A stretch of 49,168 nt of DNA from a virus (Duplodnaviria; Heunggongvirae; Uroviricota; Caudoviricetes), in IMG/VR virus record IMGVR_UViG_2565956718_000004; one strand, given 5' to 3'. Positions 3,801-49,168 of the stretch are shown one piece after another. Position numbers and translations under genes: made by a program. The notes beneath the pieces were generated by a model. It saw only the letters and a list, made by a program, of their open reading frames with translations. It searched no databases and was not told where the DNA came from. Position 1 is the first letter of the stretch, and each line of letters begins with the position of its first letter.

Positions 3801-4238
3801 GCGGCCATTACGCTGTAACTGAATCAGAATCCGGACAGAGGAAGGATTACGGTCGCCCTTTGACGTGGTCTGCACCAGTGACTGCACCCCGAAGGTAACC
3901 CGCAGGCGGTCAATGTTCGCGGACGTAATGGTGCGCGTCACCGGTTTTGCCTTCGTCACTTCCACGCCCAGTCCGGTTTCAGCTCCGGAGGACTCAAAGC
4001 CTTCCGGTGGTGTCTGCTCCTGCTCCCCGGCGCGCCAGACCGCCGTCACACCGTGTATCACGGGATTGCCGTCCGTGTCCGTCAGTGGGGTTTTGTTCAC
4101 CAGAATACTCTGCAGTCCCTTCACCGGACCTTCTATCGGTCCCTCACCAATCGCATCAATCACACTCATCATCTGCGTGGATTTGAGATTATCCTTCGCC
4201 TCACGAGGCGTGTGTGCCTTACCGCCACCTTTTCCCAT
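849..4238 (-). CDS. J: central tail fibre / host specificity protein J
   Basis: 1129-aa ORF; N-terminus [22 protein letters not shown] and most of the length are lambda-J-like; C-terminal ~150 aa diverge. Confidence 0.95.
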
Positions 4239-4443
4239 ACAGCCTTCCCCTGAATAAATTAACCGCCACTTGCCATTCCGTACAGAAGTCGGATATCCTT
4301 CGCCCGAAAAGCATGAAACACATTTCTGCCATGCTAAAGAGAAACCCCGGTATCAGCAGATACCGGGGTTTTCTTTCATGCCCACCGATAATCCTGTTGG
4401 TTAAAACCGGTAATGGCATAAAAATTCTGAATATCTTCACATT

Positions 4444-4576
4444 TTCACACACTGACTGTGGCGCTTATAATTTCGCTGCGTTAGTGTTTTTTTGCCCGAG
4501 TAACAAAAACAACTCCTTAACATTGATCTTCATTTGTCTGTCCCCGCAGCTCCGCGATCACTGCGGGATTTTTTTA
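4444..4576 (+). ncRNA. candidate small RNA unit (promoter to terminator) in the I-J intergenic insert
   Basis: TTCACA (4444-4449), 16-bp spacer, perfect TATAAT (4466-4471), then hairpin CCCGCAG/CTGCGGG plus T8 at 4543-4576; no ATG-initiated ORF between them. Confidence 0.35.
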
Positions 4577-4580
4577 TGTT

Positions 4581-5261
4581 TTATCCCTGTCGCCCGATAA
4601 CCACGACCGTTCCGCCCCCGCCTTCATCACGGGTGCTGATGTCCTGGGATATACGGCGGGAGCCAACCAGCATTTCCCCGTAAGGCACCGGCATCGGGTT
4701 CCCCTGGGCAATCATGTTATCCAGCGAGGAAAAGTACGTGTTCTGTCTGCCGTTATCCGTTGCGCGGTAATCCGGTGTTTTTGCCTTCGGGGCCAGCATC
4801 TGGGCCACACCGCCCAGAATCATGCTGGCTCCAAGTGAAAACAGCATCGTGGTGGCAGAAAAACCACCGGCTGCCAGGGCTGAACCCCATAACGCCATTG
4901 ATGCCCCGGCAGTGAAGAAAGAGCCCACGATGGCTGCCGCCCCCAGCACAATCTGCAGTCCACCCTTTCCGGCCCCGGCCAGTCGCGGCACAATATGGAT
5001 GACCGTTCCCTCACCCAGCTGTTCGTGAAGACGGGCGTACACCGCCTCCGGTGCCGTGTCATAACCGGCAATACGTATCTGGTACCAGCCTTCGTTCATC
5101 TGACGGCGAAAGCCCGGCACCTGTAACGACAGCGCCCGGATGGCTTCCGCTGCCGTGTTCACATACAGGCTGAGGCGGCGGCCAAATCGTTGTAAATCCC
5201 CGTGAAGGCAGATGCGTGCCAGTGGCGGTGACGCCAGACAGAATGCGTTCGTCGTTGCCAT
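4581..5261 (-). CDS. I: tail assembly protein I
   Basis: 226-aa ORF; N-terminus MATTNAFCLASPPLARICLHGDLQRFGRR and hydrophobic C-terminal half match lambda I. Confidence 0.9.
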   Translation of the reverse strand: MATTNAFCLASPPLARICLHGDLQRFGRRLSLYVNTAAEAIRALSLQVPGFRRQMNEGWYQIRIAGYDTAPEAVYARLHEQLGEGTVIHIVPRLAGAGKGGLQIVLGAAAIVGSFFTAGASMALWGSALAAGGFSATTMLFSLGASMILGGVAQMLAPKAKTPDYRATDNGRQNTYFSSLDNMIAQGNPMPVPYGEMLVGSRRISQDISTRDEGGGGTVVVIGRQG

Positions 5262-5902
5262 TTTTCGGAATACCTCTCCCGTTTACTCAGTTGTTCAGGC
5301 AGATGGTGAAGCAGCTCACCGTTGCCGCAGTAAATGGCGGCATGGTTCGGTACCGAAGCACCAAAGCAGCACAGCAGAATATCGCCCGCCTGTGCAGAGG
5401 ACAGGGGCACCCGGTAAAAGCCGGTGACCGCCATATTGTCCAGGTACAGGTTCTGGCCGTTGCGCCACCAGTCATCCTCGCGATGAAAATCCGGCATATC
5501 AATTCCCGCCAGATGGTATGCATCCCGGAACAGCGTGTAACAGTCCGTCACCCCGTGCTCAAAGCGCCGTCCTGTCAGATGTGGCACACAGCGGAATTTA
5601 TGAATTTCCCCCCGGCAGACCAGCCACCAGGGCAGTGCGCTTTTTATCTGCAGCCGCCGGTCAGCCTCGCTCAGCCAGGGCAGCTCACCGGGATGACTGT
5701 GGACCAGTGCCACAATCTCCCCCTGCATCTCTGCCCGCAGCCAGTCTTCCGGTGCGATACGAAAATACGCCTCCGGCTCTGCGGAAATATTCACACAAGG
5801 GATATACCGCTCCCCCTCCGGCGTGCTTATCACGAAGCCGCACGACTCCGCAGGCGCACACCGCCGGGCATGCGCCAGAATCGCTGATTCAGTCTGTGTC
5901 AT
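5159..5902 (-). CDS. K: tail tip assembly protein K (JAMM/MPN-like HSHP motif plus NlpC/P60-like Cys/His)
   Basis: Start set at internal MTQTESAIL directly after the L stop; longer track ORF is a run-on; 3' end overlaps I by ~100 nt, so boundaries are uncertain. Confidence 0.75.
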   Translation of the reverse strand: MTQTESAILAHARRCAPAESCGFVISTPEGERYIPCVNISAEPEAYFRIAPEDWLRAEMQGEIVALVHSHPGELPWLSEADRRLQIKSALPWWLVCRGEIHKFRCVPHLTGRRFEHGVTDCYTLFRDAYHLAGIDMPDFHREDDWWRNGQNLYLDNMAVTGFYRVPLSSAQAGDILLCCFGASVPNHAAIYCGNGELLHHLPEQLSKRERYSEKWQRRTHSVWRHRHWHASAFTGIYNDLAAASACM

Positions 5903-29149: not shown

Positions 29150-29971
29150 CTATCGCGTTACCCTCTTTAACTGCCGCTCCGCCCATGCCTCTTCAATGTC
29201 AAACCGAACCACCAACGTATCGTAAAAGCGTTTCACTGATTTTTTCCACGTATCAAGCGTGATAGCACTCGTCACTTTGCATATGGCATTAAATGCCTCC
29301 GTTGATGGTAGTCTTTCACAGCCACGACCACCACAACGCTGGCAGTCTCTGATAACAGGCATACCACGTTTTACCGACTCTTCACGATGAATGGCGACAC
29401 CACGCCCACGGCAATCCTTACAGGCGGTGGAAATCTCCCCCTTCCCTTTACATTCAGGACAAGACACTTTCACCACCTCCCGATTTTTTTTCCATTCTTC
29501 CCAGTAAGACGGATACACACCTTTCGTACACTTTGCCCATACCGGCGGCTTACCATCCGGATACTGGACCTTGTTTGTAAAAACTACGCTTTCAATAAAT
29601 TTTTCCCCATAGCAACAAGGGCACTGCTTTTTACTCGCTGCGCTGCGGGCATAATCCTCAAAAGCGTACGAAGCCATAATGCGCATCACTACCGGTTTTA
29701 TTTCTGCCGGGAGTTTTCTTAACGCCGCCACGCGATCACACCGACTGAGTGCATATTCTGTCAGCAATTCTGTTGCCCGCTCTCTGTCATTCATACTAAT
29801 GCCCATTTTCCCAAGGAACGCAGAAAACCCCATCTCAGCCCGATTCTGTGTCATGCCCTGCGCGGCCATCACATCAGTGATACTCAGCGCATCTTTCGAC
29901 GTTGAGGCCGATGCATCAGTCAGGCCGGGGGATTTTGGGGAGTAGTATTTCGGTAAATCTTCCAGTTTCAT
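29150..29971 (-). CDS. antitermination protein Q-like, with DnaJ-type CxxCxGxG zinc-finger repeats
   Basis: 273-aa ORF after rusA; CPECKGKGE, CKDCRGRGV, CQRCGGRGC repeats; followed by the promoter/terminator unit. Confidence 0.55.
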   Translation of the reverse strand: MKLEDLPKYYSPKSPGLTDASASTSKDALSITDVMAAQGMTQNRAEMGFSAFLGKMGISMNDRERATELLTEYALSRCDRVAALRKLPAEIKPVVMRIMASYAFEDYARSAASKKQCPCCYGEKFIESVVFTNKVQYPDGKPPVWAKCTKGVYPSYWEEWKKNREVVKVSCPECKGKGEISTACKDCRGRGVAIHREESVKRGMPVIRDCQRCGGRGCERLPSTEAFNAICKVTSAITLDTWKKSVKRFYDTLVVRFDIEEAWAERQLKRVTR

Positions 29972-36419: not shown

Positions 36420-36900
36420 TGGTCGCCTCCTTCATAAAAATAATCCAGTGGGTCTTGTCACCCTTTCCTGTTCGTTGACCGATAACAGGCTTTCTGTCGG
36501 TCAGTGCCAATATCTGGCGAACAGGTATTTGCGTTTCATTCCATTTAAAAATCAGAACGCTGTATGGCCGCAACACACGAAAGGCTTCTTTAAATCCCTG
36601 CCGCAAATCATCACGCCAGGTATCTTTATTCAGCCGTCCATATTTCTTTCCCATCCAGGCGTTATCACCAACACGCTCAAGATGCGGAGGGTCGAATACA
36701 ACAACCGGAAACGATGCGTCTGCAAATGGTAATGCACGAAAATCTGCTATCAGGTCAGGGCTAATTATCAGTCTTCGTCCATCACATAATGTGTGCTCTT
36801 CCTTTCTGATATCGCTAAATATCGCCCGGTCGTCATTCTTATCGAACCAGAACATGCGGCTGCCACAGCACATATCAAGAATGGTTGCCGGTGCACTCAC
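36406..36900 (-). CDS. small DNA methyltransferase (DPPH motif)
   Basis: 164-aa ORF; ILDMCCGS (SAM-binding-like) and VVFDPPH (motif IV-like); GTG start with RBS AGGAGG. Confidence 0.6.
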   Translation of the reverse strand: MSAPATILDMCCGSRMFWFDKNDDRAIFSDIRKEEHTLCDGRRLIISPDLIADFRALPFADASFPVVVFDPPHLERVGDNAWMGKKYGRLNKDTWRDDLRQGFKEAFRVLRPYSVLIFKWNETQIPVRQILALTDRKPVIGQRTGKGDKTHWIIFMKEATSEQD

Positions 36901-37319
36901 TGCGCTACCTCCTGAAAATTACCCTGATAAAACGACAATATGCGCTGCATAACTTCGCTCTTCCGGCACTCGCGACAGATTATGTTCTGACGCCTGTCGT
37001 AGCGGCGTATTTCGCCGTCTGGTAATAGCCAGATAAGGTCCGGATCAACCACAGATGGTTTCTTCAGCTTTGCCCTTGAGAGTTTTTTGCGGGCGTTTTG
37101 CCAGTCCTTGCGCGCCTGCTCAGACGGGAATACTCCGTAACCGGAATTGTAAACATCACCACTGGCGGCCAGCTCCATGCATAAACGACCGACAGACGCA
37201 TGACTGACACCAATTTCATCCGATAACTGCCGAATCGTGCCTCGTCCGTTAAGGCGTACGAATTCCACGATCAGCCCTTTAATTTTTTCCCGCTCTTCTT
37301 GTGTAAAAACTTTTGCCAC
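36897..37319 (-). CDS. winged-helix DNA-binding protein
   Basis: 140-aa ORF; HTH-like IRQLSDEIGVSHASVGRLCMEL; C-terminal CxxC. Confidence 0.5.
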   Translation of the reverse strand: MAKVFTQEEREKIKGLIVEFVRLNGRGTIRQLSDEIGVSHASVGRLCMELAASGDVYNSGYGVFPSEQARKDWQNARKKLSRAKLKKPSVVDPDLIWLLPDGEIRRYDRRQNIICRECRKSEVMQRILSFYQGNFQEVAQ

Positions 37320-37423
37320 AAGCCCTCCTGAAAATTACCTCATGACCAGAAATTAACATATTAGACGTCAACTAGTTTTGCCGACTCGCGCCAACTATAC
37401 TGGCCGCACCCTTCAGTGCGACA

Positions 37424-38179
37424 TCAAGTCGCGCTTGTTACTGCCTTCGCTGTCTTTTTCCTGTAGCTTTCACCTTTCAGTTCGAACATATATCCGTGAT
37501 GGATCAGCCGGTCTGCCGCCGCCACCGCCATAGTCTCATCCACGAAGATGCTGCCCCACATGCTGAACGGATGGTTACTGGTTATCACCAGGCTCCCACG
37601 TTCATAGCGATGCGCTATTAACTCGAACAGTACTCCCGTTTCGGCGCTGTCGCGTTTGACATAGCCAAGATCATCCACCACTATCACCCGGTAGCGATCC
37701 AGTTTCAGTAGCAGCTCATTCAGTTTCAACTGCGCTCTGGCTTTACGTAGTTCCTGCAACAACTCTCCTGCGCTGTAGAACCGGGCCCGGTAGCCCTGGC
37801 CTACTACGCCATCCACGATCGCTGCCGCCAGATGGCTTTTCCCCAACCCGCTGGCTCCGAACAGCAGAACGTTTTCTCCTGCATCAACCCAGTCTGTCGT
37901 TTCACAGAGTTGCCGGAACTGAGCTCCATTCAGTTCCGGCACCTGACTGAAGTCGTATTCGCTTAGCGTTTTGGCAACTGGCAACCGGGCCTCCTTTTTA
38001 TAACGACGCAGTTTTTCACTCTCGCGCCACAGGAGTTCTTCATTGCATAGCGTCAGAAGATAGCGCGATGGTGTCCAGCCTTCTGCCAGTGCTCGTTTTT
38101 CCAGAGCGTGCCATTCAGCTCCAACTCGTGTCAGGCGTAGTTTACGCAGGCTGCGTTCAAGGTGATGGATATTGCTCAC
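37424..38179 (-). CDS. istB: IS21-family helper ATPase IstB
   Basis: 251-aa ORF with Walker A GASGLGKSH and Walker B VVDDLG; overlaps the istA stop. Confidence 0.9.
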   Translation of the reverse strand: MSNIHHLERSLRKLRLTRVGAEWHALEKRALAEGWTPSRYLLTLCNEELLWRESEKLRRYKKEARLPVAKTLSEYDFSQVPELNGAQFRQLCETTDWVDAGENVLLFGASGLGKSHLAAAIVDGVVGQGYRARFYSAGELLQELRKARAQLKLNELLLKLDRYRVIVVDDLGYVKRDSAETGVLFELIAHRYERGSLVITSNHPFSMWGSIFVDETMAVAAADRLIHHGYMFELKGESYRKKTAKAVTSAT

Positions 38180-39675
38180 TGCGAACCTCCCTTGCCACGC
38201 AGTAGTTGCTCATAACTGCTCAGGTTATGCTGTTTCACATTGACTACCGGCAACGCCTTTTCCTTTATACCCAGGAAGCGCATCAGCCGGTGCAGATCCA
38301 CGTTTCCCGGGGTATTCAGCATCTGCTCCATACCTTTTGCCACGACTGAGATATCGTCGTATCCTGCAGCCAGTTTCAGAGCATGTACCATCAGCCTGCC
38401 TGCCATGTCGGGTTCCAGATGATTACATAAGCGACGCCACAGCCTCCGCCATTCATCGTCTGGCAGGATGTCATTTCTCAGCGTTGCATGGCAGAACGCA
38501 CCGGGCTTTTTTGCCAGACTGTCGATCACATGTCGGAAGTCGATACGACGGGCCCGCGTCTTCCCTTTTTCTGGTCTGACACGTGGGCAGCTCATGACCT
38601 CGCTGCTGCCAACGTAACAGCTCAGACGATCGTCCCATAACCGGACCCGTAACAGTTGACCTACAAGCCGGGAAGGTACGCTGTAGACGACGTGCTTCAC
38701 ATTGATGGTACTGCTGCGGCTAACCCTCACAGTCAGCTCATCATAGTCAGCACTGCGACGAAGCGGCAGCGGTTTCAGATGAAGACGTTCTTCCTTGACC
38801 AGATCCTGATTGTTACGGTTGTGCCGCATAACCTGCTGAGTGATGAAGGCCTGATATTCTTCTATGGTGCTGAAGTCGTTACTGCCCCGCAGTATCAGCG
38901 CCTGACAGATACGCCTTTTCAGATGTCCGTGGGCACTTTCAACCGAGCCATTTTCGTGGCCCCGACCGGCATTATTGTGTACGCCCTGCATTCCGTAGTG
39001 CTGACAGAGAGCAGCATAACGCTCAGTCAGCTCGCGGCGTCCATCTTCGCCCTGTTGTTTCCATGCTGCCCTCAGGCTGTCCGTTTTATGTTCTACCGGC
39101 ACTCCGCCCAGTTGTCCGAGGGCTTCCTGCAGACCTTCAGCCAGAGCAGAGAAGCTCTCACCACCCAGCACAACCCGCATCCAGCTCCAGTGGCTCCATT
39201 CCAGACGGAAGTGATACAACTTATGCGCCAACAACTTACCGGCGATGGTGACAACTACACCTTTCAGTTCAGTAAAGTCCGACAGACCTCGCAGACCGGG
39301 CTGATGTCGCTGGCGGAACATGACCTCCTGCTCTGCACCATACTGTAGCTTCCATTCGCGGACCCGCCGTTGCATTGTTCTTCGAAGGCTGTTGGGGTAC
39401 TGGCCGGGATATTTATCCTGTAGCATCTCCAGCAGAGTTGTTGGTGTCAGAGCCGGCCTCTCTTTCAACAGAGGAACAAGCATGCTGTCCCACACAGCTT
39501 CCAGAGGATCTTTGCGTGTGCGCCAGTGCCGAACACTGTTTTTTGCCCACTCTCCTTTTTCGATCCGACGACCAGAACGGACTGAGATACCAGCCTTCAT
39601 GGCCGAGATATGCTGAGTTATACCTTTCTTACGCTGAGTCATATAGTAACTGACCTGAGAAGTATTGAGCGTCAC
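38176..39675 (-). CDS. istA: IS21-family transposase IstA
   Basis: 499-aa ORF; N-terminal HTH and DDE/rve-like core (HENGSVESAHG). Confidence 0.85.
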   Translation of the reverse strand: MTLNTSQVSYYMTQRKKGITQHISAMKAGISVRSGRRIEKGEWAKNSVRHWRTRKDPLEAVWDSMLVPLLKERPALTPTTLLEMLQDKYPGQYPNSLRRTMQRRVREWKLQYGAEQEVMFRQRHQPGLRGLSDFTELKGVVVTIAGKLLAHKLYHFRLEWSHWSWMRVVLGGESFSALAEGLQEALGQLGGVPVEHKTDSLRAAWKQQGEDGRRELTERYAALCQHYGMQGVHNNAGRGHENGSVESAHGHLKRRICQALILRGSNDFSTIEEYQAFITQQVMRHNRNNQDLVKEERLHLKPLPLRRSADYDELTVRVSRSSTINVKHVVYSVPSRLVGQLLRVRLWDDRLSCYVGSSEVMSCPRVRPEKGKTRARRIDFRHVIDSLAKKPGAFCHATLRNDILPDDEWRRLWRRLCNHLEPDMAGRLMVHALKLAAGYDDISVVAKGMEQMLNTPGNVDLHRLMRFLGIKEKALPVVNVKQHNLSSYEQLLRGKGGSQ

Positions 39676-39775
39676 GCCATTTCCTGTTGGATCATGTAAA
39701 TGACACTCAGGTTACAAAACCGGCCAGAATAATCGGCGCCAGGCGGACTGAGTTATTGTCGTCTCATATTAACAC

Positions 39776-40753
39776 TTACCCCCTGAAGCCCGGCGGAATT
39801 TCAGTGTCCGGTTCAGAAATGTGATTCACGCAACGCTGCGCAGGCGAACGCCCCAGGCGGATAACCAGTTCATCCCATTTTTCCCGGAGTTTTGCCGGAC
39901 TCATGATGTTTTTTACCCAGAACGAATCCCGCTGGAGACGCCCAAACATTTCACAAATTTGTCTGTGAGTTCTGCCATCCAGCATCCGCATTGTGCGAAC
40001 GTCATTGGCCCATGCTGTCCAGTTGGGTTCTTTCGGTCTAGTGATCTCGCCATCATAGCTGGCCGCCTGCTCGTAAAGACTCACGATTCGTCCCCAGATC
40101 CACTGTGCGCACACCAAATCTTCCTGACTTCCCCACTGGCGTTTTTTCGCACTGAACACAACCGCGTCAGGGTGTCGGGTTAAAAAATCCTGTTCAGCCG
40201 TCTGCGGGTCCGGTTGCGAAGCGTCCGGACAAGAAGATCTTTTATCTGACGGATCAGGTTTTAATACTGACGGATCGGGGTCAATCATCGGCCCCCTAAT
40301 CGGCAGTTTTTTATCAACAGTTGATCCATCAAAATTTGACGGGTCAACCGTTGAGGGGTCAATATTTGACGGGTCAACTGTTAACGGGTCATTTTTTGCC
40401 GGGCTAATTTTTCTTTTCGGTTTATATGACTCACGCGCCGCCGCCGCAGCTGCTTCGAGTTTTTCCACATTAAGCCGATAGATATTGCTTACATTACGCC
40501 CACCGACCTTACGCTCTTCCTTCGTCAGCCAGCCCTCTTTCGCCAGTTCTGCAATAGCCGATTTCACTGTGGATTCACTTCTTGCACCGATCTGACGCCG
40601 GATAGTTTCAATGGCAGGCCATGACACGCCCTCGTCATTGCTGTAGTCTGCAAGACGGGCCATAACCGCCACCCTGGATAAGATCATGCCGGTGAAGGCG
40701 CACCCTTCCCAGACAAGACCATGAAGCTTGCTGCTCATAAAACCCCCGAACAC
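39776..40753 (-). CDS. replication initiator protein (O-like / YdaU-like) containing ori iterons
   Basis: 325-aa ORF; N-terminal HTH replication-protein-like region; central DPSNIDPSTVDPSNFDGSTVD repeats encoded by the iterons. Confidence 0.7.
   Translation of the reverse strand: MFGGFMSSKLHGLVWEGCAFTGMILSRVAVMARLADYSNDEGVSWPAIETIRRQIGARSESTVKSAIAELAKEGWLTKEERKVGGRNVSNIYRLNVEKLEAAAAAARESYKPKRKISPAKNDPLTVDPSNIDPSTVDPSNFDGSTVDKKLPIRGPMIDPDPSVLKPDPSDKRSSCPDASQPDPQTAEQDFLTRHPDAVVFSAKKRQWGSQEDLVCAQWIWGRIVSLYEQAASYDGEITRPKEPNWTAWANDVRTMRMLDGRTHRQICEMFGRLQRDSFWVKNIMSPAKLREKWDELVIRLGRSPAQRCVNHISEPDTEIPPGFRG
40240..40420. repeat. putative origin of replication: iterons plus AT-rich tract
   Basis: Direct repeats GACGGGTCAAC / GAGGGGTCAAT / GACGGGTCAAC / AACGGGTCATT and TGACGGATC copies, followed by an AT-rich tract beginning ATTTTTTGCC. 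Confidence 0.6.
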
Positions 40754-40760
40754 CGTGCTT

Positions 40761-41186
40761 TTAGTGCATCACCACAGCATTCCCTGCCGGGCCGCCGCGA
40801 TTCATCTGGTCATACAAAACAACCGCTGACGCAACAAAATCATCGACATCCTTCACCAGCCGATCCCTCCGTTCGACGATCTCACGGTAATATTCAGAAC
40901 TGTGGCTGCGCATACGGGCCACCAGCAAAGGCGGCATCGCCTTTTCGATCGCCGGTAACAGAGCCTGCATTTTTTCAACAGCATCAGGGGTGTCTTTATC
41001 CAGCCAACGGAAAATTTTCTGGGTATTACGGGCCAGGGCTTCCGGATGGCTGTCGTCATACAGTTCCGGGAACGTCATTCCCAGCTCGAAATACGCTTTG
41101 GTAATTTTCGCAGCCGGCACTTTTTCGCCGTCCGGATGCGCCCAGACATTCATCGCCATGCGGATGTGTTCATGCTTGATTTTCAT
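40761..41186 (-). CDS. YdaT-like (CII-like) regulatory protein
   Basis: 141-aa ORF beginning MKIKHEHI, directly downstream of the cro-like gene, as in Rac-type immunity regions (from memory). Confidence 0.55.
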   Translation of the reverse strand: MKIKHEHIRMAMNVWAHPDGEKVPAAKITKAYFELGMTFPELYDDSHPEALARNTQKIFRWLDKDTPDAVEKMQALLPAIEKAMPPLLVARMRSHSSEYYREIVERRDRLVKDVDDFVASAVVLYDQMNRGGPAGNAVVMH

Positions 41187-41451
41187 GAATCAAGCTCCTA
41201 GAAAGTGGTTGTGTTAACGTTTTGGTATCTTCCAGCTCGGGCCAAATATTCATCCAATCAAAAGGCCTTAGTTGCTGACGTGTAACTTCACCATTACTGG
41301 CTCGCTCAATAAGGACACATAACGATGCCCCTAACACTTGACCTTTACTCAATGCCTTTCTTAGATAACCGATGCTGGTACCACACTCGCATGCAAACAT
41401 ACGCTGTTCATCTGACGAAAGAGAATTGAGAAATATTCTTAATTCTTCCAT
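41170..41451 (-). CDS. Cro/YdaS-like HTH regulator
   Basis: 93-aa ORF divergent from the repressor; HTH-like CGTSIGYLRKALSKG. Confidence 0.6.
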   Translation of the reverse strand: MEELRIFLNSLSSDEQRMFACECGTSIGYLRKALSKGQVLGASLCVLIERASNGEVTRQQLRPFDWMNIWPELEDTKTLTQPLSRSLIHENQA

Positions 41452-41551
41452 AGCTACTCCTTAGTAAACACAGCAAAGAATACCCACAGGTAAACAAAAG
41501 TCAATACCCACAGGTTGTTTACCTTGCGGTAATCGCATCTATTATTTACCT
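41452..41551. promoter_or_regulatory. divergent promoter/operator region between cro-like and repressor genes
   Basis: Two copies of TACCCACAGGT and the inverted repeat AGGTAAACA...TGTTTACCT; related palindromes TACCCATGGGTA / TACCTATGGGTA downstream of the repressor gene near 42015-42050. Confidence 0.55.
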
Positions 41552-41971
41552 ATGGACAAATATGAATTTAGACGACAGCAACTCATCAAAATTCGTGATG
41601 AGAAATGCGATGGTAAAGCGGTTAACGTGGCCAGAAAGATCGGGCGCGAGCCTTCTTATGTATCAAGAATGTTGTACCCAGAGGGGAAAAAGGGAAAAAA
41701 ACGGATCGCTGATGATATGGTGGAGATTATCGAAGAGTCCTTTGGGTTACCCCGGGGATGGATGGATGGTATCGTTTCATCATCAACGAACACAGCCTCC
41801 AGTTATGAAACAAGGGTTCTAACGCCACGACAACGTATTTTTTTAGATCTCTTAGACGAACTGCCAGAAAGTGAAGCGGATAAATTATTAAAAACTCTTG
41901 AAGAGAAAAAACAGTATTACAATATGATCTACGAAGAAATCCGTAAAAAGAAAGCACAAAACGCATCATAG
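41552..41971 (+). CDS. prophage repressor (HTH, RacR-like; no peptidase domain evident)
   Basis: 139-aa ORF divergent from cro-like gene; HTH AVNVARKIGREPSYVSRML. Confidence 0.6.
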   Translation: MDKYEFRRQQLIKIRDEKCDGKAVNVARKIGREPSYVSRMLYPEGKKGKKRIADDMVEIIEESFGLPRGWMDGIVSSSTNTASSYETRVLTPRQRIFLDLLDELPESEADKLLKTLEEKKQYYNMIYEEIRKKKAQNAS

Positions 41972-42236
41972 CTCACCAAACAACTAGTCACCAGTTAAGA
42001 CACCGCAAAAATTTACCCATGGGTATTTACTTTTTAAATACCTATGGGTATCCTTCTTTTCATACCAACCCACCCCGCCCCACAGAACGCCAGGCAATAC
42101 TTCGAGTTACCCGGCAGTGGTCAGGGGTTAAGTAGCCAGCCCGAGGCGTATGAACATGACGGCGGGAACACTTTATATAACAGCGCAGCAGTTTTTTAGT
42201 TCCGCTACCCCGGCGTTAAGGGGAAATGAGGTCAGC

Positions 42237-42392
42237 ATGGATACTATCGATCTTGGCAACAGCGAATCTCTGGTATGTGGCGTGTTCCCCAACCAGGACG
42301 GTACGTTCACCGCAATGACGTATACCAAAAGCAAAACGTTTAAAACCGAAAATGGTGCCCGTCGCTGGCTGGAAAGAAACTCAGGTGAGTGA
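42237..42392 (+). CDS. small early protein (51 aa; YdaF-like by recollection)
   Basis: Start at MDTIDLGNSE with RBS GAGGT. Confidence 0.45.
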   Translation: MDTIDLGNSESLVCGVFPNQDGTFTAMTYTKSKTFKTENGARRWLERNSGE

Positions 42393-42393
42393 T

Positions 42394-42522
42394 ATGGATT
42401 TTGACACAATCATGGAAAAGGCTTACGAAGAATACTTCGAAGGCCTTGCCGAAGGCGAAGAAGCTCACAGCTTCAACGAATTTAAACAGGTGCTTTCCAG
42501 TTCGGCAAAATCTAACGGCTGA
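42394..42522 (+). CDS. small acidic early protein (42 aa; YdaG-like by recollection)
   Basis: ATG one nt after the upstream stop; MDFDTIMEKAYEEYFEGLAEGEEAHSFNEFKQ... Confidence 0.4.
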   Translation: MDFDTIMEKAYEEYFEGLAEGEEAHSFNEFKQVLSSSAKSNG

Positions 42523-42551
42523 TAAGCGAAACAGCACCGCGAGGAATCAGT

Positions 42552-42770
42552 ATGCAGAAACGAGAACCCGTCATCATCGCGCCAGACTATACCGATGATG
42601 AACTTTATGAGTGGATGCGCCAGAAAATTAATGCAGCGCAGGATCTGAAATGGGCCAATGAAGCCAGGACTAAGCAGGCTGAAAATCTGTCCGCTCTGGA
42701 GCAGGATATCACCAGGCTGGAAAAAGCAGCGGCATTAAGCATTGCCAGAATGGTTACATACCCACGTTAA
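42552..42770 (+). CDS. hypothetical protein (72 aa)
   Basis: 72-aa ORF with RBS GAGGAA. Confidence 0.45.
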   Translation: MQKREPVIIAPDYTDDELYEWMRQKINAAQDLKWANEARTKQAENLSALEQDITRLEKAAALSIARMVTYPR

Positions 42771-42792
42771 TAGCTAACCAACGAGGCTAATA

Positions 42793-43113
42793 ATGGAATT
42801 TAAAGATTTACCAATGCCATTCCAGGAAATGGCAGCGAATATAGTTCGTTCCCAACTGGCGACTCTTGACCTGAGTACCGTAGAAAAAGAAACCATCGAT
42901 ACTATATCCGGTAACGTGCGTCGTGCCTTTATCGGTCTGTACGAAGAGAAGCAGCTCTCTGATAACCAGGATTTACATGAAAAATACTTCCTGGATCTAA
43001 TGGACATCATTGATAAGGGGTTTGGCTTGTTAATGAAAAAGAAAGGGATTCGAATAGAACCCCTTGAAAATTACTTTGCAACAAAAAGCATTAATTCTTT
43101 TGATTCAAAATAA
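42793..43113 (+). CDS. hypothetical protein (106 aa)
   Basis: 106-aa ORF with RBS GAGG; 3' end overlaps the convergent 91-aa gene. Confidence 0.45.
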   Translation: MEFKDLPMPFQEMAANIVRSQLATLDLSTVEKETIDTISGNVRRAFIGLYEEKQLSDNQDLHEKYFLDLMDIIDKGFGLLMKKKGIRIEPLENYFATKSINSFDSK

Positions 43114-43366
43114 GAGAATTAATTACAGACTTAACATGCTCTTTCTCATGATTGAAGCTCTCATGATTGAAAGTGCCGGGTTGAAGCGAGTCGATATAAT
43201 CAACAAGACTCTGTCGTACGACTTCATTTTTATCCATAACAGATGCAAGAAATGAAATTGCTAAAAGAGTTATATCACTACGCGCCGCAGCATGCTGCAA
43301 TGCTTTATCAAAATTATTAATCTGGCGTATCAGGGAGTTAATGATTTCATCATTTTCAGTCGACAT
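43091..43366 (-). CDS. hypothetical protein (91 aa)
   Basis: Start at MSTENDEIIN with RBS AGGAGG 7 nt upstream; upstream part of the track ORF rejected. Confidence 0.5.
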   Translation of the reverse strand: MSTENDEIINSLIRQINNFDKALQHAAARSDITLLAISFLASVMDKNEVVRQSLVDYIDSLQPGTFNHESFNHEKEHVKSVINSLILNQKN

Positions 43367-44239
43367 TTCACCCTCCTGAGGGTTGGTGATTAAGGAGTTC
43401 TCCACGGGTGAGGTGGAGTGCGTGCGCCGGACACGGGTGAGCATCCGGCACTGACAGTTTACTGAAAGGATATTTCCCTGAAAAGTCAGACCATAACGCG
43501 AAAGCGCTCGGTGAGGTAGCTGGTTCATAGATAGCCTGTCGTTAAATTTTCGTCGACCGTGCGCTTCCGGTTGTGGCAATCCGCGAAATGGCGCGGCGGT
43601 AAGTATGGCGGGGTTATTCCTTCCCCCGTTGAGGACACCGGGTTGTCAGGTTGACCATACGCTTAAGTGACAACTCCGCTGCAACGCCCTCTGTTATCAA
43701 TTTTCTGGTGACTTTTGGCGGTATCAGTTCTACTCCGTGACTGCTCTGCCGCCCTTTTTAAAGTGAATTTTGTGATGCGGTGAATGCGGCTCAGCGCACG
43801 CGGAACAGTTAAAACAAGCGGTCTTTTACGGGCGTAACGGGAATGCTCTGTATCCGACGTTAATTGTTAACTGGTTAACGTCACCTGGAGGCACCAGGCA
43901 CCGCATCAACAAAGTTCACTTCGGTGATGAAAGGTAGAGAAAATGTTGAATGTAGCTATTGAAAACCAGAACGGGTGGAATTATAGTGCACCTGCACCTC
44001 ATAAAACGGGTGCCGGGCGTGGAAACCCGAAATCATTCACGGCGCATAACCGCGCTCAGGCGGTTTTTTTATGCGTTAAGCACAGCCACATTCGCATTAT
44101 GGTGGGGCGTGCAGGGCAGCCGCAAGGCTGGCCGGGTTCCGTGATGACCGGTATTTCCACCCCTGTACGTCTCACCACCCTTATGGTCGTGGAAAACCTC
44201 GGTGGTGAGTTAATCAAATTCATCGCGGAGGCTGCCATC

Positions 44240-44797
44240 ATGGCTACTATCCTTACCCTTTCTCACCCTGACGTAACCATCGAAAATGGTCGCGCTGTCA
44301 CTACGTCTGTTGCGATCGCCGAGTTCTTTGGCAAACGCCACGAACGAGTGTTGGATAAAATTCGCAATCTGGACTGTTCAGCAAAATTCACTGAGCACAA
44401 TTTTGTGTCAAGCGAATACACCGACTCAACCGGGCGCAAACTCCCAATGTACCAAATCACCAAAAACGGCTTCGTTTTCCTGGTGATGGGCTTCACTGGC
44501 AAAAAAGCCGCTGCATTTAAAGAGGCATACATTGCTGAGTTCGACCGCATGGAAGCAGAACTGCGCCAGAATAACGCCCCGTCTCCCGACAAAATGATTC
44601 ACGGGGACGGACGCACCCTGGTTATCCGTCTCGACGAACACGGCAATATCAAATTCACTGAAACCGTTCCTGACGACGCAATGGTCTGCACCCTGGATAC
44701 CTTCCGGTTTTATCTGGAGAAACAAGGATGGACTCTTGTAAACCGGAGCGCAATTAAAAATATGACTGTGGAGCAATTGCTAAAAATTCATTGTTGA
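44240..44797 (+). CDS. Rha-family phage regulatory protein
   Basis: Start at MATILTLSHPDV with RBS GGAGG; N-terminal Rha-domain pattern (RAVTTSVAIAEFFGKRHERVLDKIRNL ... MYQITKNGFVFLVMGFTG). Confidence 0.7.
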   Translation: MATILTLSHPDVTIENGRAVTTSVAIAEFFGKRHERVLDKIRNLDCSAKFTEHNFVSSEYTDSTGRKLPMYQITKNGFVFLVMGFTGKKAAAFKEAYIAEFDRMEAELRQNNAPSPDKMIHGDGRTLVIRLDEHGNIKFTETVPDDAMVCTLDTFRFYLEKQGWTLVNRSAIKNMTVEQLLKIHC

Positions 44798-44807
44798 GGA
44801 CGCGATA

Positions 44808-44996
44808 ATGGAAACGTCACTACCAAACGTTAATACGTCTGACGGGTGCTTTAATATTGGTGTTCTGCTCAGTAACAGGGATTTCACCGAGGATGCAATC
44901 AATATGAGAAAATATGAACCCTACCTGCTGAATGACAATTCCATACTCTCCAGAATTGCCCTTCTTAAACTCGGTATTTTCGGAGAGTGGCGATGA
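44808..44996 (+). CDS. hypothetical protein (62 aa)
   Basis: 62-aa ORF with RBS GAGGA. Confidence 0.35.
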   Translation: METSLPNVNTSDGCFNIGVLLSNRDFTEDAINMRKYEPYLLNDNSILSRIALLKLGIFGEWR

Positions 44997-45196
44997 ACAC
45001 ATTATTCGTACTCATTTTGACTGTACATCTCAATACTGGTGAGTCGCTTGATGCAATCACCGGCATGTACAACTCAATGAAAGAATGCATGGCTGCCGCA
45101 GCGGAACAGAAAATTCCCGGCAACTGTTATCCGGTCGATAAAGTTATTCACATGGACAATAACGAAATCCCGGCAGGATTAAAAACAGCGCCGTAA
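44987..45196 (+). CDS. hypothetical small hydrophobic protein (69 aa)
   Basis: Overlaps the upstream stop; N-terminal hydrophobic segment. Confidence 0.4.
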   Translation: MAMNTLFVLILTVHLNTGESLDAITGMYNSMKECMAAAAEQKIPGNCYPVDKVIHMDNNEIPAGLKTAP

Positions 45197-45275
45197 TTAA
45201 TATCCAGTTTCATTTTTATATGCCAGCAATGGCAGGGATTTGTTCACCCTTAAATCTGTAATGAGGTAAAACAAA

Positions 45276-47747
45276 ATGAGTAAAGTCTTTATTTGCGCCG
45301 CCATTCCGGACGAACAGGCAATAAAGGAAGAAGGTGCCGTCGCTGTAGCCACTGCCATTGAAGCCGGTGATGAACGTCGCGCCCGCGCAAAATTTCACTG
45401 GCAATTCCTGGAACATTATCCGGCTGCTCAGGACTGCGCTTATAAATTTCTTGTCTGCGAGGATAAACCCGGTATACCCCGCCCTGCCCTAGATTCCTGG
45501 GATGCTGAATATATGCAGGAAAACCGCTGGGATGAGGCGTCTGCTTCCTTTGTCCCGGTTGAGACTGAATCAGATCCGATGAACGTCACTTTTGACAAGC
45601 TGGCCCCTGAAGTACAGAACGCTGTCATGGTTAAGTTCGACACATGTGAAAACATCACCGTTGATATGGTGATTAGCGCGCAGGAATTGTTGCAGGAAGA
45701 CATGGCAACATTCGACGGACATATCGTTGAAGCGTTGATGAAAATGCCAGAAGTTAACGCCATGTATCCGGAGCTTAAGCTGCATGCCATCGGGTGGGTT
45801 AAGCATAAATGTAAGCCTGGTGCCAAATGGCCCGAAATTCAGGCAGAGATGCGCATCTGGAAAAAACGTCGCGAAGGTGAACGCAAGGAAGCCGGAAAAT
45901 ACACGTCTGTTGTTGATCTCGCCCGCGCCAGAGCCAATCAACAGCACACTGAAAATTCAACAGGAAAAATCAACCCGGTCATTGCTGCCATTCATCGCGA
46001 ATACAAGCAGACATGGAAAACACTGGATGACGAACTGGCCTACGCTCTCTGGCCTGGTGATGTGGATGCCGGAAACATTGACGGCAGCATCCATCGCTGG
46101 GCAAAAAATGAAGTTATCGACAACGACCGCGAAGACTGGAAGCGTATCTCGGCATCAATGCGCAAACAGCCTGATGCCCTTCGCTACGACCGCCAGACTA
46201 TTTTTGGCCTTGTCCGTGAACGTCCGATCGACATTCACAAAGACCCTGTGGCACTGAACAAATACATTACTGAATACCTGACTACAAAGGGCGTGTTTGA
46301 AGATGAAGGAACAAATCAGAGCGCAACTGATACTCTCTCGTCGCCAGTACCAGAAACTGATGCAGTGGAAACGGCAATTCCGGACAACGAAAAAACCGAA
46401 TGCAAAGTGGAAGTCGAACCATCTGTAGAACGTGAGGGGCCGTTCTACTTCCTCTTCACCGACAAGGATGGCGAAAAATACGGTCGCGCAAACAAACTTT
46501 CTGGTCTGGATAAGGCGCTGTCTGCTGGGGCTACTGAAATCACGAAAGAAGAATATTTCGCCCGCAAAAACGGTACATACTCAGGTTCACAACAAAATAC
46601 TGGTGCATCTGACACGACCGCACAACCAGGGTCAGTAAAAGTTACCGCTGACGAAGTAAACAAAATTATGCAGGCAGCCAATATCAGCCAGCCTGACGCC
46701 GATGAACTGCTTGCAGTATCACGTGGTGAATTTGTTGAAGGGATTAGCGACCCGAATGATCCGAAATGGGTTAAGGGGAACCAGACCCGCGATTCTGTGA
46801 ACCAGAACCAGCAAGAAACGGAACAGAACGACCAGAAAGCGGAACAAAACAGCCCAAATGCGTTACAAAACGAGCCAGAAACGAAACAGCCTGAATCAGT
46901 GGCGCAACAGGAAGTGGAAAAAGTCTGCACCGCCTGCGGTCAGACCGGCGGCGGCAACTGCCCTGATTGTGGCGCGGTAATGGGCGACGCAACATACCAG
47001 GAAACATTCGATGAAGAGTATCAGCCTGAAGTTCAGGAAGATGATCCGGAGGAAATGGAAGGCGCTGAACATCCACACAAGGAGAACACTGGCGGCAATC
47101 AGCATCACGATAGCGATAATGAAACTGGCGAGACGGCAGATCACTCAATTAAGGTGAACGGTCATCAAGAAATCACATCCACCAGCAGGACGTGTGACCA
47201 TCTAATGATCGACCTTGAAACCATGGGAAAAAATCCTGATGCCCCGATCATCTCAATAGGTGCAATATTTTTCGATCCGCAAACCGGAGATATGGGACCG
47301 GAATTTAGTAAGACTATCGATCTGGAAACTGCTGGCGGAGTCATTGATCGGGACACCATTAAATGGTGGCTTAAGCAATCACGCGAAGCGCAATCTGCCA
47401 TTATGACCGATGAAATCCCGTTAGATGATGCACTGTTACAATTGCGGGAATTTATCGACGAAAACTCCGGTGAATTTTTTGTTCAGGTTTGGGGAAATGG
47501 AGCCAACTTCGACAACACGATTTTGCGCCGTTCATACGAACGGCAGGGGATCCCCTGCCCGTGGCGTTACTACAACGATCGCGATGTACGCACAATCGTT
47601 GAGCTGGGGAAAGCCATAGACTTCGATGCCAGAACGGCTATTCCATTCGAAGGTGAGCGCCATAATGCACTTGATGACGCCCGTTACCAGGCAAAATACG
47701 TTTCAGCTATCTGGCAAAAACTGATCCCAAATCAGGCTGATTTTTAA
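45276..47747 (+). CDS. large exonuclease-like protein (acidic linker, Zn ribbon, C-terminal DEDDh-type 3'-5' exonuclease-like domain)
   Basis: 823-aa ORF; C-terminal MIDLETMG ... HNALDDARYQ pattern; CTACGQTGGGNCPDCG zinc ribbon; occupies the recE-like position next to xis/int. Confidence 0.65.
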   Translation: MSKVFICAAIPDEQAIKEEGAVAVATAIEAGDERRARAKFHWQFLEHYPAAQDCAYKFLVCEDKPGIPRPALDSWDAEYMQENRWDEASASFVPVETESDPMNVTFDKLAPEVQNAVMVKFDTCENITVDMVISAQELLQEDMATFDGHIVEALMKMPEVNAMYPELKLHAIGWVKHKCKPGAKWPEIQAEMRIWKKRREGERKEAGKYTSVVDLARARANQQHTENSTGKINPVIAAIHREYKQTWKTLDDELAYALWPGDVDAGNIDGSIHRWAKNEVIDNDREDWKRISASMRKQPDALRYDRQTIFGLVRERPIDIHKDPVALNKYITEYLTTKGVFEDEGTNQSATDTLSSPVPETDAVETAIPDNEKTECKVEVEPSVEREGPFYFLFTDKDGEKYGRANKLSGLDKALSAGATEITKEEYFARKNGTYSGSQQNTGASDTTAQPGSVKVTADEVNKIMQAANISQPDADELLAVSRGEFVEGISDPNDPKWVKGNQTRDSVNQNQQETEQNDQKAEQNSPNALQNEPETKQPESVAQQEVEKVCTACGQTGGGNCPDCGAVMGDATYQETFDEEYQPEVQEDDPEEMEGAEHPHKENTGGNQHHDSDNETGETADHSIKVNGHQEITSTSRTCDHLMIDLETMGKNPDAPIISIGAIFFDPQTGDMGPEFSKTIDLETAGGVIDRDTIKWWLKQSREAQSAIMTDEIPLDDALLQLREFIDENSGEFFVQVWGNGANFDNTILRRSYERQGIPCPWRYYNDRDVRTIVELGKAIDFDARTAIPFEGERHNALDDARYQAKYVSAIWQKLIPNQADF

Positions 47748-47811
47748 TGTTCAACCCCGGTCGTTGCCCACCAGCTATAGTGGCGGCGACCATGATTAGC
47801 GAACGACGCTC

Positions 47812-48060
47812 ATGGCAAGACTTATTTTGCTCACTGAGTGGGCAAAAGAGGAATTCAGTGAACCGGTCCCTACTCCGAGTACGTTAAGTAAATACGCTAA
47901 AGCCGGAATGATATTTCCTCTCCCCAAAAAAGTTGGAAGACGCTGGCGAGTGGATCCGCAAGCTCGCTTTGTCGGAATGGTAAACAAGCCGGAGGTGATC
48001 GCCACAGATCACCCTGCTTTGAAGAGGATACTGGAAGATGGCGCGCCCGCGAAAATATAA
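47812..48060 (+). CDS. xis: excisionase-like protein
   Basis: 82-aa basic protein immediately upstream of and overlapping the integrase start. Confidence 0.65.
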   Translation: MARLILLTEWAKEEFSEPVPTPSTLSKYAKAGMIFPLPKKVGRRWRVDPQARFVGMVNKPEVIATDHPALKRILEDGAPAKI

Positions 48061-49168
48061 AACCGATGTTCCGGGATTATCTCCGTATTTTGACAAAAGA
48101 AATAACAAAGTTTACTGGCGTTACAGGCATCCCATAACAGGCAAAAATCACGGTCTCGGCAGTATTGACCAGAAACTGGCAGAAACTATTGCAGCAGAAG
48201 CGAACAGCCGTCTTGCCCGGCAGCAAATGGAACAAATGCTCAGTCTGCAGGAGAAAATTATTAGTGATACCGGCGGTTCATCAACCGTTACCATTTTTCT
48301 GAATAATTACAGAAAAATTCAACAGGAAAGATATGAAAACGGCGAGATCAAACTCAACACGCTGAAACAGAAAGCGGCCCCTCTCAGGGTATTTGATGAA
48401 CGTTTTGGCACCAGACCGTTAGATGCCATAACCGTAAAAGATGTGGTATCAGTACTGGAAGAGTACAAGGCCAGAGGACATAACAGAATGGGACAAATTT
48501 TCAGGAAAGTACTGATCGATGTTTTCCGGGAAGCTCAGCAAACGGGCGATGTCCCGCCAGGCTTTAACCCTGCAGAATCGGCAAAAAAACCGCAGGTGCG
48601 GATATCAAGACAGCGACTGACTTTTGATGAGTGGATGATGATTTATAACGCAGCGGAAAAGAATGGTTACTTTTTACAGCGCGGTATGCTGCTGGCACTG
48701 ATGACAGGCCAGCGCCTTTCAGATATTTGCAAAATGCAATTTTCGGATATCCGGGATGGTTATCTTCATGTCGAACAGCAAAAAACAGGAACCCGGATTG
48801 CCATCCCTCTGGCTCTGCGTTGCGATAAATTAAATCTCACCCTGGATGATGTAGTGTCATCCTGCCGCGATTGCGTTCTTAGTCCGTGGCTATTGCACCA
48901 CCATCACGCGAAAGGGACAGCTAAGCGCGGCGGGATGGTTAAGCCAGCAACATTAACCGTTGCATTTAAAAAAGCCCGGGATTCTGTGGATTACAACTGG
49001 CGTGCTAATGGCACCCCACCCTCTTTCCATGAGCAGAGATCTTTATCAGAGCGATTGTTCAGAGAGCAGGGGGTTGATACCAAAATTTTGCTAGGCCATT
49101 CGAATCAAAAAATGACCGATATTTACAACGACGCACGCGGTAAGGAATGGAAAAAACTGGTCATTTGA
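48038..49168 (+). CDS. int: tyrosine integrase
   Basis: 376-aa ORF; C-terminal catalytic pattern LLGHSNQKMTDIYNDAR (His...Tyr); stop at the last three bases of the window. Confidence 0.9.
   Translation: MARPRKYKTDVPGLSPYFDKRNNKVYWRYRHPITGKNHGLGSIDQKLAETIAAEANSRLARQQMEQMLSLQEKIISDTGGSSTVTIFLNNYRKIQQERYENGEIKLNTLKQKAAPLRVFDERFGTRPLDAITVKDVVSVLEEYKARGHNRMGQIFRKVLIDVFREAQQTGDVPPGFNPAESAKKPQVRISRQRLTFDEWMMIYNAAEKNGYFLQRGMLLALMTGQRLSDICKMQFSDIRDGYLHVEQQKTGTRIAIPLALRCDKLNLTLDDVVSSCRDCVLSPWLLHHHHAKGTAKRGGMVKPATLTVAFKKARDSVDYNWRANGTPPSFHEQRSLSERLFREQGVDTKILLGHSNQKMTDIYNDARGKEWKKLVI

Follow-up and report, generated by a model that had tools for sequence, protein, structure and literature searches.

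ISEc10 in the spacer beside the replication initiator gene of a prophage whose module carries no helicase-loader gene

An ISEc10 copy between the initiator and DUF977 genes

The viral DNA of IMG/VR record IMGVR_UViG_2565956718_000004 (Caudoviricetes), a stretch of 49,168 nucleotides (nt) that we refer to as the window, holds a prophage in which an insertion sequence (IS) of the IS21 family stands between the gene for the replication initiator and the next phage gene. An earlier note, made from the sequence alone, had placed an istA/istB element with terminal inverted repeats at 37353-39772, and had suggested that it replaced or disrupted a helicase-loader gene and left the prophage replication-defective. 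The element is an intact ISEc10 of 2410 base pairs (bp) at 37359-39768, with its genes on the minus strand. The istA transposase gene (38176-39675, minus strand; 499 amino acids, aa) matches the NCBIfam profile NF033546, transpos_IS21, with E = 3.4e-67 and 227 bits against a curated cutoff of 160, and istB (37424-38179, minus strand; 251 aa), which encodes the AAA+ helper ATPase, matches NF038214, IS21_help_AAA, with E = 1.8e-79 and 266.7 bits against a cutoff of 200. The two open reading frames (ORFs) overlap by 4 nt at the end of istA. An inverted-repeat scan returned arms at 37358-37406 and 39721-39769 (49 nt, 71% complementary), which, trimmed to the IS ends, give terminal inverted repeats at 37359-37406 on the istB side and at 39721-39768 on the istA side.

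The ends themselves were set by comparing six independent ISEc10 copies with differing flanks. All six share an invariant core that runs from TATTAGACG... (37359) to ...CGTCTCATA (39768), and in the window this core is bordered by the target-site duplication TTAACA, at 37353-37358 on the left and at 39769-39774 on the right, as the alignment to the empty site also shows. The check on exact ends and target duplication that the earlier note had proposed is thereby made: the element is where the note saw it, and its range comprised the IS together with most of the target duplication. Duplications of 4-8 bp are typical of the IS21 family. Four of the five other ISEc10 copies examined have duplications of 6-8 bp and one (L010) has none. 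Among these copies, on plasmid pE400634_87 (L009) and in loci L010-L013, the duplications read GTTTACT, TTATATTG, GACAAAC and TACACG; the lack of one in the NCTC86 copy (L010) suggests a rearrangement at that copy. The segment 37300-39800 aligns over the whole element to hundreds of annotated E. coli ISEc10 copies at 99.7-100% identity, and the identity is 100% to annotated copies at unrelated sites (for example H6-H8 and H11-H16). The interval 37359-39768 thus combines all the hallmarks of the IS21 family: the istA and istB pair, the terminal repeats, the target duplication and near-identity to ISEc10.

The insertion begins 2 bp past the stop codon of the initiator gene and 39 bp before the start of the gene for a DUF977 protein. 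When the two flanks of the IS were joined and run against complete E. coli genomes, the uninterrupted site was found in 14 of them. There (loci L001 and L002) it reads ...CCAGAAATTAACACTTACC..., also rendered ...ATTAACAC..., with TTAACA present once; the same string is split in the window, as TTAACA-IS-TTAACA. Gene order in the IS-free genomes is YdaS-like regulator, YdaT family, a 320-aa helix-turn-helix (HTH) domain protein, which is the initiator, DUF977, methyltransferase and Ead/Ea22. The initiator and DUF977 genes are 40 nt apart, and the annotation of this neighbourhood contains neither an ATPase gene nor a P-like gene. In one of the 14, strain Ecol_316, an IS-free twin of the window, a prophage which adjoins ompW, is 99.995% identical to 16400-37358 over 20,959 bp and 99.989% identical to 39768-49168 over 9,401 bp, and these two alignment blocks abut, their overlap consisting of the duplicated bases only. 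The junction between IS and prophage was itself met in none of 5,426 complete E. coli genomes (none has both junctions) and, by exact search, in none of the GTDB species representatives.

The 40-bp spacer that separates the initiator gene from the DUF977 gene was thus the target of a recent transposition, by a full-length and unmutated ISEc10. The insertion is recent and simple because the twin is IS-free at 99.99% identity and the alignment blocks abut at the duplicated bases, and nothing was deleted, since the 6-bp target duplication is clean. The insertion left the initiator, the iteron array within it and DUF977 intact. DUF977, the first phage gene beyond the IS, occupies 36897-37319 on the minus strand and has retained its ribosome-binding site; the 140-aa product (YdaW-like, also labelled 'Ren-like') matches Pfam PF06163 with E = 2.7e-31 and belongs to PHROG 142. 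It is the 140-aa protein that the earlier note had listed as the next gene, and the ORF list likewise agrees with the initiator stop codon that the note had given at 39776-39778.

As a side observation, an exact 16-nt repeat, CCTCCTGAAAATTACC, occurs at 36908-36923 and at 37324-37339, a short way upstream of the start codons of the methyltransferase and DUF977 genes, respectively. Its reverse complement, GGTAATTTTCAGGAGG, contains the ribosome-binding site, and the repeat may serve mosaic exchange as a conserved linker at module boundaries.

Loader genes in the window and in its relatives

Loader genes were sought by tblastn; the queries were three lambda-P-like proteins, the DnaC of E. coli, the YdaV protein of Rac and one prophage YdaV-like protein. 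In the window IstB was the sole match, with no P-like or DnaC-like phage gene, so the earlier note was right that no loader gene is found there. The 42-kb Ecol_316 region gave no loader by the same search, and its annotation by the Prokaryotic Genome Annotation Pipeline (PGAP) lists neither a loader nor a helicase.

A scan of IMG/VR provided 80 loci (L026-L105) with an initiator 89-100% identical to that of the window, and these fall largely into two layouts. At 55 of the 80 loci the genes after the initiator are DnaC/YdaV-like, DUF1627-like and then DUF977; at 22, DUF977 comes 44 nt after the initiator, as in the twin of the window. The longer layout, a sister module, is exemplified by L034 (4970-6487), where a 248-aa DnaC/YdaV-like ATPase gene begins 6 nt after an initiator gene that is 100% identical to ours and a gene for a 249-aa DUF1627-like protein follows. 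Both forms are common in the 5,426 complete E. coli genomes, with the initiator/DnaC-like junction in 1,276 and the loader-less initiator/DUF977 junction in 1,909, and they diverge exactly at the initiator stop codon. The earlier note had presumed a loader in this position, which the sister module bears out and the loader-less junction does not. The idea that all close relatives are without a loader was dropped in view of the 55 loci that have a DnaC-like gene.

Such loci demonstrate that a loader can occupy this slot, and to that extent they favour the original suspicion, namely that the IS replaced or destroyed a loader gene between the initiator and DUF977 and that the prophage can no longer replicate. 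This explanation is difficult to reconcile with the perfect 6-bp duplication at the IS, with the 99.99% identical IS-free twin, whose identical 40-bp spacer contains no loader, and with the presence of the same spacer in the phages mEp460_ev081 and HannyBb. A relative with the same gene order, without the IS and without a loader, was what the earlier note had named as evidence against its claim, and such relatives exist. The replacement or disruption of a loader by the IS is thereby refuted, and we give it hardly any credence.

The loader-less junction extends to Escherichia phages mEp460_ev081, HannyBb and vB_EcoS-640R1, with an identical 40-nt spacer and an initiator whose N-terminus has diverged. 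The complete genomes of HannyBb and mEp460_ev081 contain no annotated or tblastn-detectable loader of the P or DnaC type and no annotated helicase. The other possibility raised in the earlier note, that the loader lies elsewhere, is wrong as far as the phage is concerned, as none was detectable in the window or in these two genomes. The prophage, HannyBb and mEp460_ev081 all conform to a module in which the initiator gene contains the origin and the phage supplies neither loader nor helicase, the sequence search having covered loaders of the P and DnaC types. Such modules are reportedly called 'initiator-solo', a term said to go back to work by Weigel and Seitz from 2006, although it appeared in none of the papers that our search of an open library listed. 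As for a module of the lambda type, the initiator appears to have its internal iterons, while the adjacent downstream loader is missing from both the window and the twin. The absence of a loader is an established natural variant, native to the module, and not damage.

It could still be argued that the loader-less form is itself defective, being the product of an older loss of the DnaC-like and DUF1627 genes, after which a cryptic prophage would be copied only passively, along with the chromosome. The sister module has a 100% identical initiator, so that one form arose from the other by a 1.5-kb insertion or deletion or by exchange, and the annotation of the Ecol_316 prophage includes several small pseudogenes. 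On the other hand, the loader-less junction is the commoner of the two (1,909 against 1,276 genomes), and it also accompanies diverged initiators (86% identical in nucleotides) in complete phage genomes without a loader elsewhere. Moreover, 50 of 51 initiators with the same type of C-terminal tail across species of Enterobacterales (see below) are without an adjacent P-like or DnaC-like loader, and the initiator ORF and the iterons are intact. We consider an older, crippling loss unlikely. A recent deletion as the origin of the loader-less form was rejected, given the identical 40-nt junction beside diverged initiators in complete phage genomes.

The single tblastn match, IstB, deserves comment in this context. 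IstB is an AAA+ ATPase of the DnaC family, it sits where the relatives have their YdaV-like gene, and it gives weak NCBIfam matches to DnaC (E = 1.4e-4) and DnaI (E = 7.5e-5); one might therefore imagine that it loads the helicase for the phage as a stand-in. The similarity is confined to residues 103-191 of DnaC (22% identity over approximately 90 residues, E = 0.003), and the part that precedes them does not align. The region of DnaC that binds DnaB lies before these residues. In addition, the IS is 100% identical to ISEc10 at unrelated sites, which argues against any adaptation, and the module appears to work in relatives without any such gene. We rejected the surrogate role on the identity of the IS to copies elsewhere and on the limited extent of the DnaC similarity, and accord it practically no credence. 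The fallback view in the earlier note, that an IstB-like function is irrelevant here, is supported by the same observations.

The initiator and its DnaT-like tail

The initiator gene lies on the minus strand, at 39776-40738 when read from the ATG codon used by PGAP (320 aa) or at 39776-40753 when read from the GTG codon at 40753 (325 aa). The protein matches PHROG 391, 'replication initiation O-like', from end to end (E = 4.4e-115), and residues 201-307 also match families labelled as DnaD-like helicase loader and as replisome organizer. HTH_36 is its sole Pfam domain. The AlphaFold2 model comprises a winged helix (residues 1-105), a disordered linker (108-177) in which the predicted local distance difference test score (pLDDT) is below 50, a helical domain (178-297) that reaches block pLDDT values of mostly 90-97 when modelled alone, and a disordered tail. 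The DPS-rich linker is encoded by an iteron-like array at 40314-40403, made up of a direct-repeat family (D1) and an inverted repeat (I1), with at least 5 palindromic units of the type TTGACGGGTCAAC at a spacing of 15 bp. In phage lambda the origin lies within gene O, in a comparable arrangement of iterons. By its sequence, the array in the window is likely the replication origin.

The last 21 residues of the initiator, AQRCVNHISEPDTEIPPGFRG, are encoded at 39779-39841 (minus strand) and resemble the C-terminus of the host primosomal protein DnaT. By BLASTP, 14 of 20 residues (70%) are identical to residues 160-179 of E. coli K-12 DnaT, with E = 1e-7, the match being at the extreme C-terminus in both proteins, and phmmer places the tail on the PDB entries 2ru8, 6aep and 9zbt_D. 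Outside these last 20-21 residues neither BLASTP nor phmmer detected similarity between the initiator and DnaT, and a profile of the C-terminal domain run against PDB sequences matched DnaT in the tail only. The initiator thus has the DnaT tail signature ...SEPDxxIPPGFRG, and in place of the N-terminal oligomerisation and PriB-binding domain of DnaT it has the HTH_36 winged helix.

The C-termini of 120 representatives of the family were sorted into tail types: GFRG, GFRS or GFRT; W-N-[ST]-x-E-x-W-x-x-[TV]-L; NLDF...GVLP; and others. Homology between the types ends at approximately residues 296-300, which is the end of the folded domain, and it is there that the tails are swapped. The protein P0071 has an unrelated C-terminal domain (FELVWQEYPLRAG...) and yet an identical 22-residue DnaT-like tail. 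Because homology between tail types stops at the end of the domain, and because P0071 joins a different domain to an identical tail, these sequences suggest that the tail moves independently of the C-terminal domain, as a portable module.

Tail type and downstream partner were then compared in one genome per species (loci L106-L185), loader detection relying on P-like and DnaC-like references and covering the 3 kb downstream of the initiator. For the 51 loci with a GFR-type tail, no P-like gene and a single DnaC-like gene (L134) were detected. All 11 loci with a W..W..L or GVLP tail have an overlapping P-like gene downstream and none has a DnaC-like gene. The 13 loci with a tail of the AWxxIWQQ type have neither. 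Context look-ups gave the same picture: an overlapping Phage_lambda_P gene is next to each W..W..L or GVLP initiator inspected in Salmonella, Erwinia and Morganella, and no loader is next to any of the GFR-tailed initiators inspected in E. coli, Klebsiella, Pantoea and Citrobacter. The first downstream ORF at 20 sampled GFR-tail loci encodes, by Pfam, a methyltransferase, PerC, DUF1627, ANT or ParB-HTH protein, and never a loader or helicase. Alone among the GFR-tail loci of the species survey, L134 (Enterobacter mori, 3935-5608) has a loader gene next to the initiator; this prophage initiator has a PPGFRG tail and is apparently frameshifted into pieces of 205 aa and 134 aa, and the DnaC-like gene comes 3 nt later.

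Judging from gene order, the DnaT-like tail appears compatible with loaders of the DnaC type, because the identical initiator precedes a DnaC/YdaV-like gene by 6 nt at the 55 IMG/VR loci described above. The order of initiator and DnaC-like gene in this sister module mirrors the dnaT-dnaC gene pair of the host.

Two further kinds of tail came to light in the survey. The third class, ...AWxGIWQQAAEQ..., is found in Providencia, Proteus, Yersinia and Buttiauxella (L122, L124-L128, L130, L132, L162, L168, L169, L178), and no adjacent P-like or DnaC-like gene was detected at these loci. Judged by eye at ten of them, most of the downstream ORFs resemble DNA methyltransferases, one of which is fused to a PAPS-reductase-like domain. 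In the metagenome-assembled genome of an uncultured Serratia sp. (L176), the initiator tail contains an internal IPEGF and ends in ...DDDFI, and a DnaC-like gene is next. This ending recalls the C-terminal tip (DDDIPF) of SSB, a protein that binds single-stranded DNA.

Helicase recruitment, operon context and known systems

On the collective evidence, we place at roughly 85% the probability that this is a recent and simple ISEc10 insertion into a module that is natively loader-less, and that the initiator recruits the host helicase via host machinery, the tail being the likeliest contact. The initiator would bind the iterons in its own gene through the winged-helix domain. It would then bring in the host DnaB helicase through the loading machinery of the host, and not through a phage P protein, with the disordered DnaT-like tail as the most likely contact element for host helicase loading. 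The tail is the best candidate for this contact because it stands at the protein terminus, is disordered and portable, and because it and P exclude each other; with loaders of the DnaC type it co-occurs, in the sister module as well as in the dnaT-dnaC pair of the host.

Several considerations weigh against this account. The viability of HannyBb and mEp460_ev081 is taken solely from their deposition as complete phage genomes, and replication of the prophage, with or without the IS, is likewise something that we infer. Because the loci share ancestry, the correlation of tail and partner is confounded, and it depends on the two sets of loader references and the 3-kb limit of the survey. The tail could also target PriA, or bind single-stranded DNA, instead of contacting DnaC/DnaB. 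PriA is a real alternative partner because, in the preprimosome structures of 2026, the C-terminal domain of DnaT docks on PriA via a hydrophobic interface (PMC13377028), and the same paper states that the recruitment of DnaB/DnaC is unresolved. Finally, DopC combines O-like character with a DnaT_C domain and has a P-like protein as its partner (PMC5509034).

We go one step further only tentatively, and would sooner expect the following proposal to fail than to hold. The disordered tail of roughly 20 residues (...SEPDTEIPPGFRG) may be a portable docking peptide, common to DnaT and to many enterobacterial prophage initiators, that sets the route by which helicase is delivered to the origin: GFRG tails would lead to host DnaC/DnaB or PriA without a phage loader, and W..W..L tails to lambda P. 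If so, the phage proteins would point to the element by which DnaT passes the preprimosome on to DnaB/DnaC, and they would suggest, too, that the dnaT-dnaC operon descends from a prophage module of initiator plus DnaC-like gene. Our search of the literature turned up neither a stated function for the DnaT tail nor any paper on the PPGFRG/GFRG motif. The combination of initiator and DnaT_C is already known: the fusion of a DnaT_C C-terminus to an O-like HTH_36 N-terminus in DopC comes from a study that also described DnaC as phage-derived (Brezellec et al. 2017, PMC5509034). The rule that links tail to partner is new as far as we found.

The location of the IS raises the separate matter of transcription. 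A candidate pR-like promoter upstream of the cro-like gene (41477-41504, minus strand) was found by consensus scan and is a consensus match only, with 9 of 12 positions matching; it would drive the operon in which the IS now lies. The IS, which is co-oriented with the early-right operon of the phage, separates this promoter and the cro-like, cII-like and initiator genes from everything from DUF977 onward, including RusA and the Q-like antiterminator (29150-29971). It could thus cripple the prophage by being polar on the genes from DUF977 through the Q-like antiterminator, with late expression blocked. The position of the IS, which within the operon separates the initiator from all of the delayed-early genes, favours this outcome, as do the untranslated stretches of approximately 93 nt and 104 nt at the ends of the IS. 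The classical IS insertions r14 and r32 in the cII-O-P region of lambda are polar, and they count for it as well. However, the IS and the operon have the same orientation, antiterminated phage transcription often passes through, and a scan for terminators across the IS found terminator-like sites no more frequently than in shuffled sequence, a result that also tells against the provision for polarity in our own account. We judge a block of late expression to be rather unlikely. Effects of the IS are plausible only as indirect ones, possibly some polarity on the delayed-early genes, ahead of which 2.4 kb of foreign transcription unit now stands, and 2.4 kb of additional DNA to package.

The flagged feature is an ordinary one: both the element and this kind of module were known before. 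It adds one more copy of the common ISEc10, lodged between two genes of a prophage that is itself common, and the gene loss that had been suspected never took place. The insertion is useful mainly as a clean and dated case, with an empty site at 99.99% identity that can be used for studying IS polarity within a phage early operon. Across thousands of genomes an identical initiator occurs either with a DnaC-like loader or on its own, which offers a route to how loader-less lambdoid phages capture the host helicase, and the DnaT-like tail offers one to the role of the conserved tail of DnaT, which is listed as unresolved in PMC13377028.

Compared with known systems, the element is the same as ISEc10 in sequence, in its overlapping istA and istB, in its terminal repeats and in its 6-bp duplication, and the insertion site alone differs. 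The module resembles the O/P module of lambda in its early-right order (cro-like, cII-like, initiator), in the N-terminal DNA-binding and C-terminal partner domains of the initiator and in the iterons in the linker-coding part, whereas the window has no P gene and the tail is DnaT-like, unlike the tails of the P-paired relatives. With Rac of E. coli K-12 it shares the YdaS-like and YdaT-like genes upstream and DUF977 (YdaW-like) downstream; Rac, however, has the DUF1376 initiator YdaU and the DnaC-like ATPase YdaV between ydaT and ydaW, in place of which the window has an O-like initiator with HTH_36 and lacks an ATPase. The phages mEp460_ev081 (LR597641) and HannyBb (PP925841) have the cII-like gene, the O-like initiator (annotated as 'Primosomal protein I'), the 40-nt spacer and DUF977, again with no detectable loader. 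They differ in that they carry other N-terminal alleles of the initiator, of which only the 3' 470 nt are approximately 86% identical, and no IS. The sister module (L034; strain 4/1-1) has a 100% identical initiator, tail included, and the same upstream genes, and it differs by an extra 1.5 kb with the 248-aa DnaC-like ATPase and the 249-aa DUF1627-like protein. Host DnaT, which shares the tail, is without the winged-helix origin-binding domain, and DopC differs from the initiator of the window in being chromosomal, without iterons and paired with a P-like protein.

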